The notes beneath the pieces are model-generated. The model was given only the letters and a program-made list of their open reading frames with translations, was not told the DNA's origin and searched no databases. Positions 5,896 to 30,550 of a DNA stretch of 32,372 bases are shown here, in pieces. The stretch comes from a virus (taxonomy: Duplodnaviria; Heunggongvirae; Uroviricota; Caudoviricetes), in IMG/VR virus record IMGVR_UViG_2703718827_000001, positions 1 through 32,372 of that record; one strand, written 5' to 3'. Both the position numbers and the translations under genes were made by a program. Position 1 is the stretch's first letter. Each line of letters begins with the position of its first letter.

Positions 5896-6468
5896 TCAGA
5901 AAAAAAGATAGCCCACAGTAGTAATAGCTAACGCGCAAATCGGAGTGAGGATTGTTGCGATCCTCGCTCTGTCTAACCTGGTCCTGATTCGCTCATTCAC
6001 TTCACACAACTCTTCAGCTGTATTGTGCAAATTGGCTAACCTGATACGCCTGATTACTGATACCGGGTTGCGGTCAGCAGTAAACCCCCTACTTGCCAGT
6101 TCTTCGTAATGCTCATGGTCCAGCGATTTATAAAGTTTAGTATAGAGATCTGCCGGCGCTGAGTTAAGCAAAGCGCGAACCTGAACTGACAGGACGCCAG
6201 TAACCAAATAAATAGCGCACGCTGCCCAATAGAGCATGAACACACCAATACCTAGCGACATAAAAAAAGGTTGGTTATTTTGCGTCAGCAGTAAAAACGA
6301 TGAACCAATTCCGACAATAAGAATCCCAAGCAATTTGTATCCGTTTTCTCTGTTAATTGTATTCGATTGCTCGATCTCTTTGATGCACTCCTCGCCCTGT
6401 CTCTCGAGAAATTCAACAAGCTTATCATCGGCACTTAGAAAATAATCGTAAGGGAGATTTGTCATCAT
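5896..6468 (-). CDS. Multi-pass membrane protein (moron), unknown function
   Basis: 190 aa; two adjacent hydrophobic helices (LLGILIVGIGSSFLLLT and FFMSLGIGVFMLYWAACAIYLVTGV) and a C-terminal hydrophobic segment; weak RBS; AT-rich. Confidence 0.55.
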   Translation of the reverse strand: MMTNLPYDYFLSADDKLVEFLERQGEECIKEIEQSNTINRENGYKLLGILIVGIGSSFLLLTQNNQPFFMSLGIGVFMLYWAACAIYLVTGVLSVQVRALLNSAPADLYTKLYKSLDHEHYEELASRGFTADRNPVSVIRRIRLANLHNTAEELCEVNERIRTRLDRARIATILTPICALAITTVGYLFF

Positions 6469-6525
6469 AAACCGCTTAACTTTATGGACTTAGATAAATT
6501 TTAACCGATTGTGGGCTTGCGTATA

Positions 6526-6549
6526 AAGGAAAAGCCCACCTGAGTGGGC
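6526..6549 (-). terminator. Rho-independent terminator downstream of the KilA-N gene
   Basis: Minus-strand hairpin GCCCAC-TCAG-GTGGGC followed by TTTTCCTTTAT, about 10 nt after the KilA-N stop. Confidence 0.55.
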
Positions 6550-6559
6550 CTTGCCACCT

Positions 6560-7123
6560 TCACGCGATGCCTGGCAGGTACATCTGAACTTCATCGGCGA
6601 CGCGCTCCCTTGCTGCGTGCAACAGCTGCTTACGACCACCGACACCCCACCGGGCCATCTGGCTGGCGCATTGGCTGATCTGCCTGGTTTCAGTGTTGAT
6701 GATGTGGTCGATTTTGTTCAGGCGAGACATGGCACTGATACCGAGGCGCACTACGGTTCTGAACACCTCATACACTTCAATCTCAAATTCCGGCTTAATC
6801 CATGCAGCATAACGGATCGCCAACAGTTCAACACCCCAAACGCCTGGTTCATCCCCACCTTTAATAACATTAAGTGGTTGAATTTGTTCCAGAGTGCTTT
6901 TTTGCACTTTGGCTTTTAGTGCTTTTATGAAGCGCTTAACTTGAGCACTACGCAAAAACTGACTTGGGCGCTGCTGTTCTGTTGCCTCTCCGTTTGCCAC
7001 TGCGGCTGCATGAAGATCATTAAGGTTATAGCGCCCTTCGTCATCAACGCGAACGGAAACGCCGTTTACTGATACGGTTGGATATTTCATTGCGATTTGC
7101 CTATAGAAAGCAGAGCCTGTCAC
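6560..7123 (-). CDS. KilA-N domain protein (moron inside the tail operon)
   Basis: 187 aa; N-terminal region (VSVNGVSVRVDDEGRYNLNDLHAAA ... VIKGGDEPGVWGVELLAIRYAAWIKPEFE) matches the KilA-N/APSES-type DNA-binding domain pattern; possible alternative start at Met12. Confidence 0.7.
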   Translation of the reverse strand: MTGSAFYRQIAMKYPTVSVNGVSVRVDDEGRYNLNDLHAAAVANGEATEQQRPSQFLRSAQVKRFIKALKAKVQKSTLEQIQPLNVIKGGDEPGVWGVELLAIRYAAWIKPEFEIEVYEVFRTVVRLGISAMSRLNKIDHIINTETRQISQCASQMARWGVGGRKQLLHAARERVADEVQMYLPGIA

Positions 7124-22115: not shown

Positions 22116-22150
22116 AAAAAGCCCAAGGCGTTAACCTCGGGCTCTTTTGT
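22116..22150. terminator. Bidirectional intrinsic terminator (tR'-like) between the Q-position gene and the lysis genes
   Basis: 9 bp stem with one mismatch (AGCCCAAGG/CCTCGGGCT), 6 nt loop; followed by T-runs on both strands. Confidence 0.5.
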
Positions 22151-22212
22151 GTAATTCAGTCGACAACCAAAGCTATGGCGACGATATCAGATTTACGCTA
22201 AATGTATGCTAT

Positions 22213-26922: not shown

Positions 26923-27116
26923 TGGGCGGCCTCCTCCATGGCTGGGTCTGCTGGTAAAGTCATGTGCGGCACTTCAATCAGTTCTGCCCGAGCATCAGCC
27001 GTGTTAAGCGCCATTAATGCGACGATCCGCTTCTGCTCAGCATCCATTCGTAACGCTACTGTCTTGCCGTTCATATTGAAGAACACCGCAACGTTTTTGA
27101 TATCTTCGATTTTCAT
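26919..27116 (-). CDS. Small hypothetical protein (65 aa)
   Basis: Internal Met start (MKIEDIKNVAVFF...) of the track ORF; coupled to neighbours by 4 nt overlaps. Confidence 0.4.
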   Translation of the reverse strand: MKIEDIKNVAVFFNMNGKTVALRMDAEQKRIVALMALNTADARAELIEVPHMTLPADPAMEEAAQ

Positions 27117-27457
27117 ACCCCTACCCTCCCCCAAACCATCAATACCCTTCTCATCGCCGCGCTGTTGCGGCACTCCTGGCAGATCACGTTTGCCTCTGTA
27201 CGCTGCACCAGCTTCGAATTTCCCTTCGGCATAGCCGGGATTGTTTCTGGTGCGTATTTCATGCCGTAATCGGTCAGCCGATAAAGCCGCTGTCCGTGCT
27301 TGCCTTCGAACTCGATCAGGCCGTCTGCAAACAACGTACTTAACGGGCCGGAAATCTTTTTGGTGGTCATGCCGATCATGCTGGCAATACGAGCACTGTT
27401 CAGGCCCGGGTTGTTACGCAGGGCTGCAAGAATCTGCCCGCGGATTGTTATGGTCAT
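27113..27457 (-). CDS. Winged-helix DNA-binding protein
   Basis: 114 aa; N-terminal wHTH-like region (QILAALRNNPGLNSARIASMIGMTTKKISGPLSTLFADGLIE); C-terminal Cys pair. Confidence 0.5.
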   Translation of the reverse strand: MTITIRGQILAALRNNPGLNSARIASMIGMTTKKISGPLSTLFADGLIEFEGKHGQRLYRLTDYGMKYAPETIPAMPKGNSKLVQRTEANVICQECRNSAAMRRVLMVWGRVGV

Positions 27458-28893
27458 CAGAATCCCCCTTTCTTTTTCGGCTGCTGCTCACGCCCGCGGC
27501 GTTCTGCGGCGGCGGCCTGCTGGTCTGTGTCGTAAATTGCCCCGTTGATCTGATTGCAATAAACCGTTCCGGTACTGCCGTGGCGATTGAGTCGCAGGAT
27601 TAACTCGGTTTCTCCCGGCGGCACGCTGTCATCGAAAGCACCTTCCCGGTGGATACCAACCCAGTAGTCGCAGTCCTGCTCAATCTGTCCTGTGTCGCGG
27701 GAATCGCTCGGTAACGGGCGTTTATTCACTCGCTTCTCCAGTTCGCGGTTGAGCTGGGTCAGCAGCACGACGACGCAGCCAAGCTCTTTAGCGAGGTTCT
27801 TCAACCCTTTGGTGATCATCCCGTAGGCAAGGTCATTACGGTCGGCTTTTTCGGCGGTCATCAGAGTCAGGTAGTCAACCAAAATCATTCCTACGCAGCC
27901 CTTCTCGCGCTTGATTCGGCGGCTTTCGCTAACGATGTGCGCCAGTGACAGGCCAGGAGTATCGTCGATGTACAGCATGTCGATTTCACTCAATCGCCCG
28001 GCGGTGGCGATCGCCTTCTTAAAGTCGCCGTCGTAATCGCCCTGGTACTGGTCATCGGCGTCATCCGTGGCTGGCATGTAAAAAATGCTCGGGTTAACTC
28101 CAGACTTCTGACCAACCAGTTTTTCGAGGATCTGGTCGCCCGGCATTTCGAGGCTGAACATCAGCGCTGGCTTTTTCTCACGAACCGCGCAGTTGATCGC
28201 CATCTGACCGTACAGGGTTGTCTTGCCCATCTTTGGCCTTGCGCCAATCACGAACAGAGAGCCTTTAACCAGACCTTTCGGCGCCAGCAGCCGGTCGAGT
28301 GACGGGATGCCGGTGCTCATGCCGCGCTGTTCGCCTGAAGGGTCAAAGCGTTTCTCCAGATCTGCTACCCAGTCATCCATAACCTCGCCGAACGACCGCA
28401 ACCCACGGCGACTACCGGTTTTTGAATGGTCTGCGAGCTGGGTGAAAATACCCTGAATGGCCTCGTACTTCTGCGTGGCGCTCATGCCATTGCGGGAATA
28501 CAGCAGCTCAGTAGCTTCGGTCAGGCGGCTGATACCGTAGCGCTCCATTGCGGCTTCCCGGACTGACGCAGCGTATGCCACGATGTTTGCAGCGCTGGGA
28601 GTGTTCTTGGCGATCTCCGCCAGGTAAGCAAAGCCACCTACCTGCTCCGCGAGCCCTTTGCCTTCGAGCGCGTCGAACAATGTCAGACCATCGACTGGCT
28701 TGTTGTCGCGGAACATCTGGCGCATCTCGGCAAAGATCAGCTGGTGAGGTCGGCTGTAGAACGATTCAGGCTTGAGCATCGCCAGAACCTTCTGGACTCG
28801 CTCGCTGTTGTCATCATCCAGCAGCAGGCCACCGATAACGCTCTGCTCTGCTTCGAGGTTTTGTGGTACAGCCATGAAATCAGCGGTCATCAC
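27457..28893 (-). CDS. dnaB: Replicative DNA helicase (DnaB family)
   Basis: 478 aa; DnaB N-terminal domain (QNLEAEQSVIGGLLLD), Walker A (GARPKMGKTT) and the conserved RecA-like core. Confidence 0.9.
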   Translation of the reverse strand: MMTADFMAVPQNLEAEQSVIGGLLLDDDNSERVQKVLAMLKPESFYSRPHQLIFAEMRQMFRDNKPVDGLTLFDALEGKGLAEQVGGFAYLAEIAKNTPSAANIVAYAASVREAAMERYGISRLTEATELLYSRNGMSATQKYEAIQGIFTQLADHSKTGSRRGLRSFGEVMDDWVADLEKRFDPSGEQRGMSTGIPSLDRLLAPKGLVKGSLFVIGARPKMGKTTLYGQMAINCAVREKKPALMFSLEMPGDQILEKLVGQKSGVNPSIFYMPATDDADDQYQGDYDGDFKKAIATAGRLSEIDMLYIDDTPGLSLAHIVSESRRIKREKGCVGMILVDYLTLMTAEKADRNDLAYGMITKGLKNLAKELGCVVVLLTQLNRELEKRVNKRPLPSDSRDTGQIEQDCDYWVGIHREGAFDDSVPPGETELILRLNRHGSTGTVYCNQINGAIYDTDQQAAAAERRGREQQPKKKGGF

Positions 28894-29785
28894 GATCCCC
28901 CTCGCGCACTTCGATGTAGAGCTTTTCGGTCAGGAACTTATCGAATTTCATGCGGCGCCAGGTCTTCCCAGACTTCTGGTCTGGTCGGTCTTCAAGCATC
29001 CAGCGGCAGTTCTGAGCGATGTAACGCAGATAGCTTCTGAAACCGTCCATATCCATCGGCTTGCCGTCCAGGTTGCGGGCAATCTTATTAGCCTTACCCC
29101 AGAATGTGCGGATCAGATTGCGTCGCTCATCAGTGAGGCATCTCCATCCCCGTGCTTCAGGCAGTTCGTCTTTCAGGCATTGCCATACTTCATCGCATGA
29201 CAAACGAGACTTTTTCTCTTCAGCGGGTTTCTGGTCATTTGCGACATACTTACTACCGTTAGGTAGTAAGTTATTTAATATATTGTTATCTGTGGACACT
29301 GGCTGGACATCGGCTGGACACTCCACCTCCGCAGGCATTGGTACGACTATGTTTGGGCTGGACGCTGGCTGGACATCTGCTGGACAAAAATTTGACTGAT
29401 ATTCGTCATATTTGACCACTTTTAGAACAGTAAAACGGTTGTTCGATTTGGTGGTGATCATGCCCAGATTCTGGAATTTACGGAGAAGGGATTTAACGCG
29501 ATCAGCGGTCAAACCCGTTTCCATTGCCAGTGTGTTTCGCCCGGTGATGAACTCTCCGCGCTCGCAGATCACATCGCCAACATCAGTAGATACCAGTGTC
29601 TGTTCGTGATTAGCACGCAGGAGCATGTGAACCCATAAATGAGCCGCCTCAGCGTCCTTGTAGAACGGCACATCCATAATTTTACGGTGCAGCAAGGCAA
29701 ACCCCTTACCGTCATTCGTGCGCGGTTTCTGGAGCCTTCTGGCCTCTCTGGCTTCGGCTAAATTGGATACGTTACCCACGGCCAC
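28880..29785 (-). CDS. Replication initiator (lambda O-like function) with internal origin repeats
   Basis: 301 aa; overlaps the helicase gene start by 14 nt; N-terminal HTH-like region; repeated peptide CPADVQP encoded by DNA iterons; position between the cII-like gene and the helicase. Confidence 0.65.
   Translation of the reverse strand: MAVGNVSNLAEAREARRLQKPRTNDGKGFALLHRKIMDVPFYKDAEAAHLWVHMLLRANHEQTLVSTDVGDVICERGEFITGRNTLAMETGLTADRVKSLLRKFQNLGMITTKSNNRFTVLKVVKYDEYQSNFCPADVQPASSPNIVVPMPAEVECPADVQPVSTDNNILNNLLPNGSKYVANDQKPAEEKKSRLSCDEVWQCLKDELPEARGWRCLTDERRNLIRTFWGKANKIARNLDGKPMDMDGFRSYLRYIAQNCRWMLEDRPDQKSGKTWRRMKFDKFLTEKLYIEVREGDRDDR
29290..29395. repeat. Iteron array (about 6 direct repeats of GGCTGGACA at 11-12 bp spacing) plus adjacent AT-rich tract: candidate origin of replication
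   Basis: Direct repeats visible in the sequence inside the initiator ORF, followed by an A/T-rich segment (CAAAAATTTGACTGATATTCGTCATATTTGACCACTTTTAG). Confidence 0.7.
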
Positions 29786-30011
29786 TCTCCTTACGTTTCA
29801 GTTCTTCCAGGATGGCGCGCATCTTCTCTGCCACAATCGGGTTAACCGAGCGGATGAAGCGGTCGCGGGTTATGTTTTTATGTACAGAGGTATGGTAATA
29901 GCGTGGATTTTTTGCCATTATTCCTCCTGCAATGAGTGCACACGATTTGCATCTGAAGGCCAGTTCTGTTCGCGCAGACTGGCTTTCGCCATTTTTGAAA
30001 CTTCCCATCAC
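29772..30011 (-). CDS. Small hypothetical early protein (79 aa)
   Basis: ORF coupled by overlaps to the cII-like gene upstream and the initiator downstream; contains CKSC. Confidence 0.4.
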   Translation of the reverse strand: MMGSFKNGESQSARTELAFRCKSCALIAGGIMAKNPRYYHTSVHKNITRDRFIRSVNPIVAEKMRAILEELKRKESGRG

Positions 30012-30550
30012 ATAACCCCCAACATCGAAGTGACCATAGCCATCAGCGGCGCGGTCAGATCCGGGTCGACACGGAACATCTCTACAATCCCCTCACTGAG
30101 TTCCTTGAGCTTCTGGTGACGCGGGGCGTTCATCGCAACGGCCACTTTCGCCTCGCTCGTTTCTTTCTCAAGTCGAGCTAAGCGGGACATAAAACTGTCC
30201 TCTGGAAGAAGTCGATGGCGATACTCCAGCGGCAAAACGGCCATGATTGCGGGCGTCAGCTGGCGCACGTTCTCGCGGTACTGCTCAGAGTCGAAACGGT
30301 TATCCAGAAAGCGAAAAAGTTTCTGGCGCGCCCTGCTGATGTCTTCCGGAAAGCTGATGGCGGTCCCGCCCTGCTCCCGGTATTCGTTGATGATCAGCGC
30401 CGAAACGACGTCCTGATTGTCCAGCGCCGACGACCATGCCCTGACCGCATCGCGGATCTTTTCGTGGTCTGGCGCCGCCTTAGGTTGAGCGCGGTTTATC
30501 ATCGCTCCCGGGTGTATTCCGGTATTGTGTTGATACGCAAGTGAATGCAT
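30008..30550 (-). CDS. YdaT-like / CII-type regulator
   Basis: Start at the internal Met (MHSLAYQ...); segment EYREQGG...LTPAIMAVLPLEYRHRL resembles Rac YdaT (EYLRQGG...LIPAILAILPRELRHRL); located directly downstream of the cro-like gene. Confidence 0.55.
   Translation of the reverse strand: MHSLAYQHNTGIHPGAMINRAQPKAAPDHEKIRDAVRAWSSALDNQDVVSALIINEYREQGGTAISFPEDISRARQKLFRFLDNRFDSEQYRENVRQLTPAIMAVLPLEYRHRLLPEDSFMSRLARLEKETSEAKVAVAMNAPRHQKLKELSEGIVEMFRVDPDLTAPLMAMVTSMLGVM

Follow-up and report, generated by a model that had tools for sequence, protein, structure and literature searches.

In the phages HK620, L and Sf6, a putative replication origin (ori) has been placed within the initiator gene itself: the database records carry a rep_origin at nucleotides (nt) 393-488, 397-473 and 386-481 of that gene, respectively. 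For phage L, six repeats of 11 base pairs (bp) were described as the likely origin and contrasted with lambda and P22, where four repeats of ~20 bp are present (PMC8022706). The P22 origin also lies within an initiator gene, gene 18, paired with a DnaB-type helicase, gp12, two traits shared with the locus described here; however, the repeats in gene 18 number four and measure ~20 bp, and the identity between its protein and phage L gp18 is only 25%, so that it belongs to a different repeat class (PMC8022706). Here, we analyze an array of short direct repeats inside the replication initiator gene of a Caudoviricetes sequence (IMG/VR record IMGVR_UViG_2703718827_000001), the whole 32,372-nt stretch of which is called the window below. 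These repeats very probably form the origin from which a lambdoid temperate phage or prophage starts theta-type replication, and they lie where the gene codes for the linker of the initiator. The hosts of this phage or prophage would be Enterobacter/Klebsiella-like. This kind of origin is known already, as a prediction, from HK620, Sf6 and L, and the window appears to add a new class of iterons to it.

The layout of the window is that of HK620, L and Sf6, with three 11-bp repeats, ~33 variable bases, three further repeats, an AT-rich tract of ~20 bp and a palindrome of 9-10 bp, and in all of them the helicase gene overlaps the stop of the initiator gene. The repeat core is TGTCCAGC in the window, compared to TGTCCAAC in L and Sf6 and TTACCAGC in HK620. 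The core is also TTACCAGC in an HK022-like Escherichia coli locus, as judged from the repeat peptide, HK022 itself being compared as protein only. Relative to HK620, L and Sf6, the segment at amino acids (aa) ~50-125 of the N-terminal domain (N-domain) differs to match the repeat class, and the palindrome arms differ as well. With ori lambda, the window shares the position of the origin within the initiator gene, between the codons of the DNA-binding N-domain and those of the partner-binding C-terminal domain (C-domain), and the order of iterons, AT-rich region and palindrome in the direction of transcription, the lambda palindrome being imperfect as read from the sequence. In contrast, lambda has four 18-bp sites, at gene nt 349-433 in its record, where the window has six asymmetric 11-bp units in two triplets, and the lambda partner is P, a loader of the host DnaB, where that of the window is a phage-encoded DnaB-like helicase. 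The lambda iterons have internal dyad symmetry and are bound by O dimers.

The initiator of the window matches PHROG 345, 'replication initiation O-like', with an E-value (E) of 1.5e-67. A tblastn search of phage genomes returned full-length homologues, aligned across 91-100% of the query with identities of 42-52% and E between 1e-63 and 1e-96, namely the O proteins of HK022, HK620 and Stx phages, gp18 of phages L and SE1, and gp43 of Sf6. The nearest phage record by tblastn is Enterobacter phage CobraSix (98%), and Klebsiella phage Chronis is 93% identical at the nucleotide level across the whole gene by megablast; no origin is annotated in either record. The protein has no detectable similarity to lambda O (BLASTP E = 13), and it is not matched by Pfam Phage_rep_O (PF04492) at E <= 0.01, while lambda O is matched at 5.7e-36. 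The original prediction, made from the letters of the window, that the initiator does not look like lambda O is thus right as far as sequence goes, yet the protein clearly belongs to the O-like family. Over aa 22-174, it also matches PHROG profiles labelled 'DnaD-like helicase loader' (PHROG 2514/186/7498). With Pfam, the sole match, to MksE, stays below threshold (18.4 bits vs a cutoff of 27), and Phage_rep_org_N, DnaD_N and DnaB_2 give none.

Six copies of a TGTCCAGC-type core on the gene strand (GCTGGACA on the + strand) are found at 29291-29386, corresponding to nt 400-495 of the initiator gene. The start-to-start spacing of 11, 11, 44, 11 and 11 divides them into two triplets, 66 bp apart, and the sixth repeat (TGTCCACA) runs into the AT-rich tract. 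Four exact copies of GCTGGACA lie inside 85 nt, whereas ~1.2 are expected across the 32-kb window on both strands, and the window total of seven exact copies was reached by 0 of 100 shuffles. Elsewhere in the window, the core 8-mer occurs as three isolated copies, in line with chance. The proposal of about six direct repeats inside the initiator open reading frame (ORF) therefore stands, beyond chance; the proposed helical-turn spacing holds as an 11-bp period within triplets, the array as a whole being arranged 3+3 and not uniformly. Tandem Repeats Finder reports a single triplet only (29293-29322, period 11) and misses the 3+3 layout. The repeated peptide CPADVQP is also present as predicted: the distance of 22 codons between the triplets yields two copies, at aa 134-140 and 156-162. 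Within each triplet, the 11-bp period causes the same DNA unit to be read in three frames (CPA / VQP / SS), and the repeated peptide is therefore not the cause of the DNA repeat.

The repeats recur in related initiators, with the same geometry in HK620, L, Sf6 and ~35 other loci. In total, ~40 diverged Enterobacterales loci display the spacing 11, 11, 44, 11, 11 at a constant offset from a KYD(D/E)(Y/F)Q motif. Two loci, from Silvania hatchlandensis (L030) and a Leclercia metagenome-assembled genome (L032), have a spacing of 12, 12, 56, 12 with a 12-bp period (ATTACCAnnnnn); there, the repeats are in frame, giving a repeated peptide xYQx, and the distance between the triplets is 80 nt rather than 66. 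We considered a single helical phase for all six repeats (66 = 6 x 11), an idea weakened by the 12-bp period and the 80-nt triplet offset of these two loci. A DnaA box spanning the last repeat and the AT-rich tract (GTGTCCACAGATAAC) was also considered and rejected: by eye it has two mismatches relative to TTATCCACA, and L and Sf6 have TGTCCATAAAC, so that it is not kept across classes. Six core classes can be distinguished, with CCA invariant at core positions 4-6: TGTCCAGC in 14 loci including the window, GTGCCAAC in 10, TGTCCAAC in 7 (among them L and Sf6), TTACCAGC in 5 (among them HK620), AATCCAAA in 2 and TTACCAAC in 1.

Per-site variability was measured among close relatives taken from viral contigs and genomes, 85 in all, with 71 distinct sequences. 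In these 71 sequences, the mean variability of the six 8-nt cores is 0.0026 over all positions and 0.0018 at third codon positions, compared to 0.060 at the third codon positions of the N-domain. It is 0.083 in the 3 nt that separate the cores, 0.088 in the spacer between the triplets and 0.0013 in the AT-rich tract. Invariant cores beside freely varying bases are hard to explain otherwise than by a constraint on the DNA. Taken together, these comparisons show the repeats, their fixed geometry, the AT-rich tract and the palindrome to be under selection at the DNA level.

When the repeat class is compared with the two domains of the initiator, N-domain identity in pairs of loci of the same class is 0.82 on average (minimum 0.52) and never exceeds 0.66 in pairs of different classes, whereas C-domain identity ranges from 0.18 to 1.00 in both kinds of pairs. 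On distances, class and N-domain give a Spearman correlation of 0.44, class and C-domain one of -0.09. The comparison shows the repeat class following the N-domain, at the predicted winged helix-turn-helix (wHTH) region of aa ~50-125, and not the C-domain.

Exchange of the C-domain does not depend on that of the N-domain and iterons. In some Klebsiella proteins, the C-domain of the window is joined to an HK620-like N-domain and HK620-type repeats, and some Enterobacter proteins combine the N-domain and repeats of the window with a different C-domain. Judged by sliding identity, the crossovers fall at gene nt ~150 and ~510, and the second of them coincides with the boundary between the AT-rich tract and the palindrome. 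The left crossover also coincides with the edge of a conserved patch at 29627-29778, covering the beginning of the initiator gene (~150 nt) and the end of the upstream ORF, which has ~85% DNA identity to HK022, HK620 and many Stx phages; the remainder of the gene lacks this similarity. Compared to two Enterobacter loci (L011 and L124), the window is 97-100% identical over the N-domain and repeats and over the bulk of the helicase, but only ~50% identical over ~28735-29275 (gene nt 510-1050), which comprises the palindrome, the C-domain and the first ~50 helicase residues. In such mosaics, the palindrome travels with the cassette formed by the C-domain and these helicase residues. The stretch is thus exchanged as one cassette, which fits a contact of the C-domain with the helicase N-terminus, but linkage could also explain it.

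A natural hybrid in Dryocola sp. BD626 (locus L039, 2423-3373) has an L/Sf6-type N-domain, six TGTCCAACG repeats, an AT-rich tract and a palindrome, followed by a C-domain of the lambda O type (62% identity, E = 3e-61). The gene after it encodes lambda P (PF06992, E = 5e-65) and not a DnaB-like helicase. This hybrid is the best available evidence that the module of N-domain and repeats may do the job of the origin-binding half of lambda O. It shows the C-domain and its presumed partner changing together, and indicates that the C-domain would determine the partner.

Two further loci, from Escherichia whittamii (L043, 2072-2839) and Rouxiella silvae (L044, 1985-2752), join the C-domain of this initiator family (…NCRWMLEDRP…) to unrelated N-domains, that of L044 being of the HTH_36/DnaD_N type. 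Both have mid-gene repeats of their own, CCCTGTGCCG…AAAGCAC four times in L044 and a ACAGAGATTACT-like unit three times in L043. Enterobacterial-lambdoid sequences were also found under unrelated taxa, namely Chryseobacterium sp. 18061 (L034, whose ori region differs very little from that of Sf6), Catenulispora (L040, 501 nt) and Xanthomonas pisi (L042, 386 nt); these labels likely reflect contamination or mislabelling.

A 277-aa variant of the initiator (P0008), present in 20 contigs including the Salmonella enterica prophages L125-L127 (gene 6001-6834), has an exact 66-bp deletion, corresponding to 22 aa. It retains a single triplet, TGTCCAGCCGA TGTCCAGCCGG TGTCCACAGAT (L125:6395-6430), followed by the AT-rich tract and the palindrome. 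The deletion looks like the product of recombination between the two triplets. The neighboring genes of these prophages are seemingly intact.

The AT-rich tract is the predicted DNA-unwinding element. Only 4 of the 32354 19-nt segments of the window have a G+C content (GC) as low, and a corresponding tract is present in 44 of 44 homologous loci, with a length of 11-27 nt (mostly 21-24) and 0-23% GC. The original prediction had placed the A/T-rich segment on the other side of the repeats, at 29387-29450, and this could not be retained: the segment has 31% GC, shows ordinary third-position variation among relatives and encodes conserved residues, the conserved wing of the DNA-binding domain (…FTVLKVVKYDEYQ), while the conserved tract is at 29272-29290. 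The proposed lambda-like arrangement is supported for the in-gene iterons and an AT-rich region downstream of them, but not for the side on which this region was placed. Similarly, the proposed ori interval, 29285-29450, includes the repeats, but the likely ori, which we would place at ~29248-29386, extends past its left edge, with the palindrome mostly outside.

Each of the 44 loci has a perfect palindrome, 9-10 bp long and with a loop of 4 nt (TAAC, TGAC or TAAA), generally 21-24 nt past the last repeat; its arms occur in 17 different sequences. When the local sequence was shuffled 5000 times, a stem of at least 9 bp arose once. Across 23 distinct aligned versions, all 10 pairs change on both sides, and 97.4% of the cells are paired against 62% in shuffles, in an alignment that was centred on the best hairpin of each locus and hence favors structure. 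These values were reached by 0 of 500 shuffles, and one-sided changes (of the G-U type) are essentially missing. Such changes, restricted to Watson-Crick pairs, point to a symmetry at the DNA level, possibly a hairpin, a cruciform or a symmetric site, in preference to an RNA hairpin. The palindrome may form a hairpin or cruciform adjoining the unwinding element. Its arm sequence correlates loosely with the C-domain side (rho = -0.51). The arms were considered as a sequence-specific partner of the C-domain and rejected in this role, the same arm being found with C-domains only ~50% identical and different arms with C-domains at least 90% identical; linkage and the conservation of structure explain the correlation better. 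As judged from these alignments, the conserved trait of the palindrome is its structure and not a specific sequence. We know of no role for such a conserved hairpin element in lambdoid origins. That it is extruded as a hairpin or cruciform when the AT-rich tract melts, and then serves as the entry or loading site for the helicase brought by the C-domain, is a speculative idea to which we give little weight.

The palindrome and the T-rich tail that follows it on the + strand (29248-29281) could instead form an intrinsic terminator of antisense transcription and be no part of the origin. A consensus scan indeed flags the palindrome with TATTTAATAT (+ strand) as the sole, weak terminator-like site in 28800-30100, and the phage L record has a software-predicted minus-strand terminator (locus 2001-2043) just past its ori, which by position should overlap the equivalent palindrome. 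However, one such site per 1.3 kb is the shuffled expectation, the stem is AT-rich with 4 G-C pairs of 10, and no promoter-like site was found in 28800-30100. Furthermore, the Watson-Crick covariation of 10 out of 10 stem pairs, almost without G-U intermediates, fits a DNA symmetry better than an RNA hairpin, and lambda also has an imperfect palindrome just past its AT-rich region. We consider a terminator unlikely.

The AlphaFold2 model of the initiator has a predicted N-terminal wHTH domain, a linker and a C-terminal helical domain, and the iterons, AT-rich tract and palindrome are all encoded within the linker, which is predicted to be disordered. A Foldseek search of BFVD with this model gave 75 matches at E <= 1e-3 (best 7.6e-11), mostly 'replisome organizer' or DnaD-domain phage proteins. 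These phage initiators have the same wHTH-linker-helical architecture, the likeness being at the level of fold and profile only and their binding sites unrelated. G38P of SPP1 is an example of the replisome-organizer type, with oriL inside gene 38. Winged-helix domains of the OmpR/PhoB type bind in tandem to direct repeats one helical turn apart. Their resemblance to the window is a geometric analogy only (asymmetric direct repeats, 11-bp period) and implies no homology. Iteron origins of plasmids (Rep/RepA/pi) have iterons of 17-22 bp outside the rep gene and a protein with two winged-helix domains, whereas the window has 11-bp units inside the gene and one wHTH in the model; it does not belong to this type, and the plasmid RepA N-domain structures 4pql and 4pt7 are weak fold matches (E ~0.04-0.05).

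In the proposed mechanism, the N-terminal wHTH would bind the six 11-bp repeats, each repeat probably taking up a single domain, with the domains aligned head to tail along the same helix face. The resulting nucleoprotein complex would destabilize the 19-bp AT-rich tract, in analogy to the action of lambda O at its own origin. The C-domain would then bring in the phage DnaB-like helicase encoded immediately downstream, as suggested by gene order, module swapping and the hybrid of a lambda O C-domain with lambda P. The palindrome would be a conserved structural part of the origin.

The reading of the repeats as an origin is supported because the protein is homologous to initiators with a putative ori at the same gene position, because the cores and the AT-rich tract are under purifying selection at the DNA level, because the repeat class follows the N-terminal DNA-binding domain, because the natural hybrid joins the module to the lambda O C-domain and lambda P, because the predicted wHTH/linker/helical structure matches that of 'replisome organizer'/DnaD-domain proteins, and because the order from iterons to AT-rich region is the same as in lambda. 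Homology, constraint, N-domain coupling and the hybrid likewise bear out the proposal that this protein is the probable origin-binding initiator.

Several points weigh against this reading. No experimental test of the 11-bp-repeat class of origin was found in the searchable literature, and the ori features of HK620, L and Sf6 carry the label 'putative' in the databases. The core constraint gave p = 0.00035 in a permutation test matched for codon position, a value that is optimistic given the phylogenetic relatedness of the sequences. The repeats adjoin the N-domain codons, so that linkage alone could give part of their co-inheritance, although no recombinant separating the N-domain from the repeats was present among the loci compared. 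Given the L030 and L032 loci, strict helical phasing between the triplets would not be required. In the prophages that retain three repeats, either three sites would suffice or the prophages would be replication-defective. The structural model was built from a shallow alignment of 17 sequences, with a mean predicted local distance difference test (pLDDT) of 65. Foldseek against the Protein Data Bank (PDB) found no match at E <= 0.001, the weak matches (E >= 0.015) all being wHTH proteins (CodY, CRP, SmtB and the plasmid RepA N-domain), and a profile search of PDB sequences with the initiator gave nothing at E <= 1.

The repeats could also be initiator sites that act mainly in control (autoregulation, titration, handcuffing or exclusion of related phages), the origin being elsewhere. 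The comparative data show selection on the sites and their coupling to the N-domain, not the start of replication, and plasmid-cloned lambda iterons interfere with the replication of lambda-type phages (PMC3349717). However, the sites are flanked by an extreme AT-rich tract and a conserved palindrome in the order of ori lambda, and the whole unit is kept in every homologue examined. The other copies of the core 8-mer in the window are three isolated ones, no systematic scan of the window for another iteron cluster having been made. A role limited to control thus seems quite improbable. It is more improbable still that the repeats are bound by another protein, either a host factor or the Ren-like/MarR-type protein encoded at 27113-27457, for transcription control or as a roadblock in the early right operon. 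Further DNA-binding proteins are indeed encoded nearby, but the repeat class follows the wHTH (aa ~50-125) of the very gene that contains the repeats, across six classes and several independent mosaics, and this tracking holds in the hybrid with a different downstream partner. The least credible reading, that the repeats exist for the CPADVQP motif in the linker and that the DNA has no function of its own, can draw on the two copies of the peptide and on the in-frame peptide repeat of the two 12-bp-period loci, but is opposed by the three frames read per triplet, by core third positions ~30 times less variable than those of the N-domain, by the predicted disorder of the segment, by peptides that differ completely between repeat classes and by natural variants lacking 22 aa of the segment.

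Table 1. Features of the replication region, in window coordinates.
Feature	Position	Strand	Details
Initiator gene	28880..29785	-	ORF, 301 aa from first GTG; PHROG 345
N-terminal winged-helix domain, predicted iteron-binding	29399..29668	-	aa ~40-129, H-β-β-β-H-H-β-β, pLDDT 68-85
Interdomain linker, predicted disordered	29207..29395	-	aa 131-193, pLDDT ~30
C-terminal helical domain, predicted helicase-recruiting	28901..29197	-	aa ~197-295, pLDDT 80-90
Iteron triplet 1	29357..29386	-	cores TGTCCAGC 29386-29379, TGTCCAGC 29375-29368, CGTCCAGC 29364-29357; period 11 bp
Inter-triplet spacer	29321..29356	-	length kept, sequence variable
Iteron triplet 2	29291..29320	-	cores TGTCCAGC 29320-29313, TGTCCAGC 29309-29302, TGTCCACA 29298-29291
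Repeat copy	29290-29298		+ strand reading cTGTGGACA
Repeat copy	29301-29309		+ strand reading GGCTGGACA
Repeat copy	29312-29320		+ strand reading GGCTGGACA
Repeat copy	29356-29364		+ strand reading GGCTGGACG
Repeat copy	29367-29375		+ strand reading GGCTGGACA
Repeat copy	29378-29386		+ strand reading TGCTGGACA
AT-rich tract, predicted DNA-unwinding element	29272..29290	.	10.5% GC, 19 bp, immediately downstream of last iteron in transcription direction
Perfect palindrome	29248..29271	.	ACTTACTACC gtta GGTAGTAAGT on + strand, 10-bp arms, 4-nt loop
DnaB-like replicative helicase (P22 gp12 type)	27457..28893	-	Pfam DnaB 2.6e-31, DnaB_C 7e-58; PHROG 19
Small Ren-like/MarR-type winged-helix protein	27113-27457		

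The initiator gene belongs to an early right operon of the lambdoid type, with genes for a CI-like repressor, a Cro-like and a CII-like protein, a small orf48/hkaW-like ORF, the initiator, the helicase and a Ren-like protein. The start of the helicase gene overlaps the end of the initiator gene, and the same neighbor is found in nearly all homologous loci. The more likely start of the initiator appears to be the GTG at 29779, giving 299 aa, because AAGGAG at 29787-29792 lies 7 nt upstream of it, because it overlaps the stop of the upstream ORF (GTGGGTAA) and because it agrees with the start annotated in homologues. This upstream ORF (29772-30011, minus strand, 79 aa) is a homologue of P22 orf48 and HK620 hkaW and matches PHROG 1913 and, weakly, DUF2740; the 'tail protein' label that it carries in PHROG and RefSeq is implausible within an early right operon. 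Elsewhere in the window, Rfam places the isrJ family of Hfq-binding small RNAs (RF01393) at 22118-22197 on the minus strand, with 41 bits compared to a gathering score of 37.

The principles of lambdoid replication are unchanged by these findings. For a group of temperate phages of Enterobacter, Klebsiella and Salmonella, they fix the likely origin together with its initiator/helicase pair, genes that in the CobraSix and Chronis records are labelled 'hypothetical' or lack an ori feature. They also provide a rule by which such origins may be found and typed: a KYD(D/E)(Y/F)Q motif, 3+3 repeats of NNNCCARN, an AT-rich tract and a palindrome. The repeat class would predict which phages share replication specificity, a point of relevance to prophage interference and to the construction of vectors from such phages. 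The locus is also an example of modular exchange at defined crossover points, and of dual coding, in which a linker predicted to be disordered would double as the place for the protein's own DNA-binding sites.

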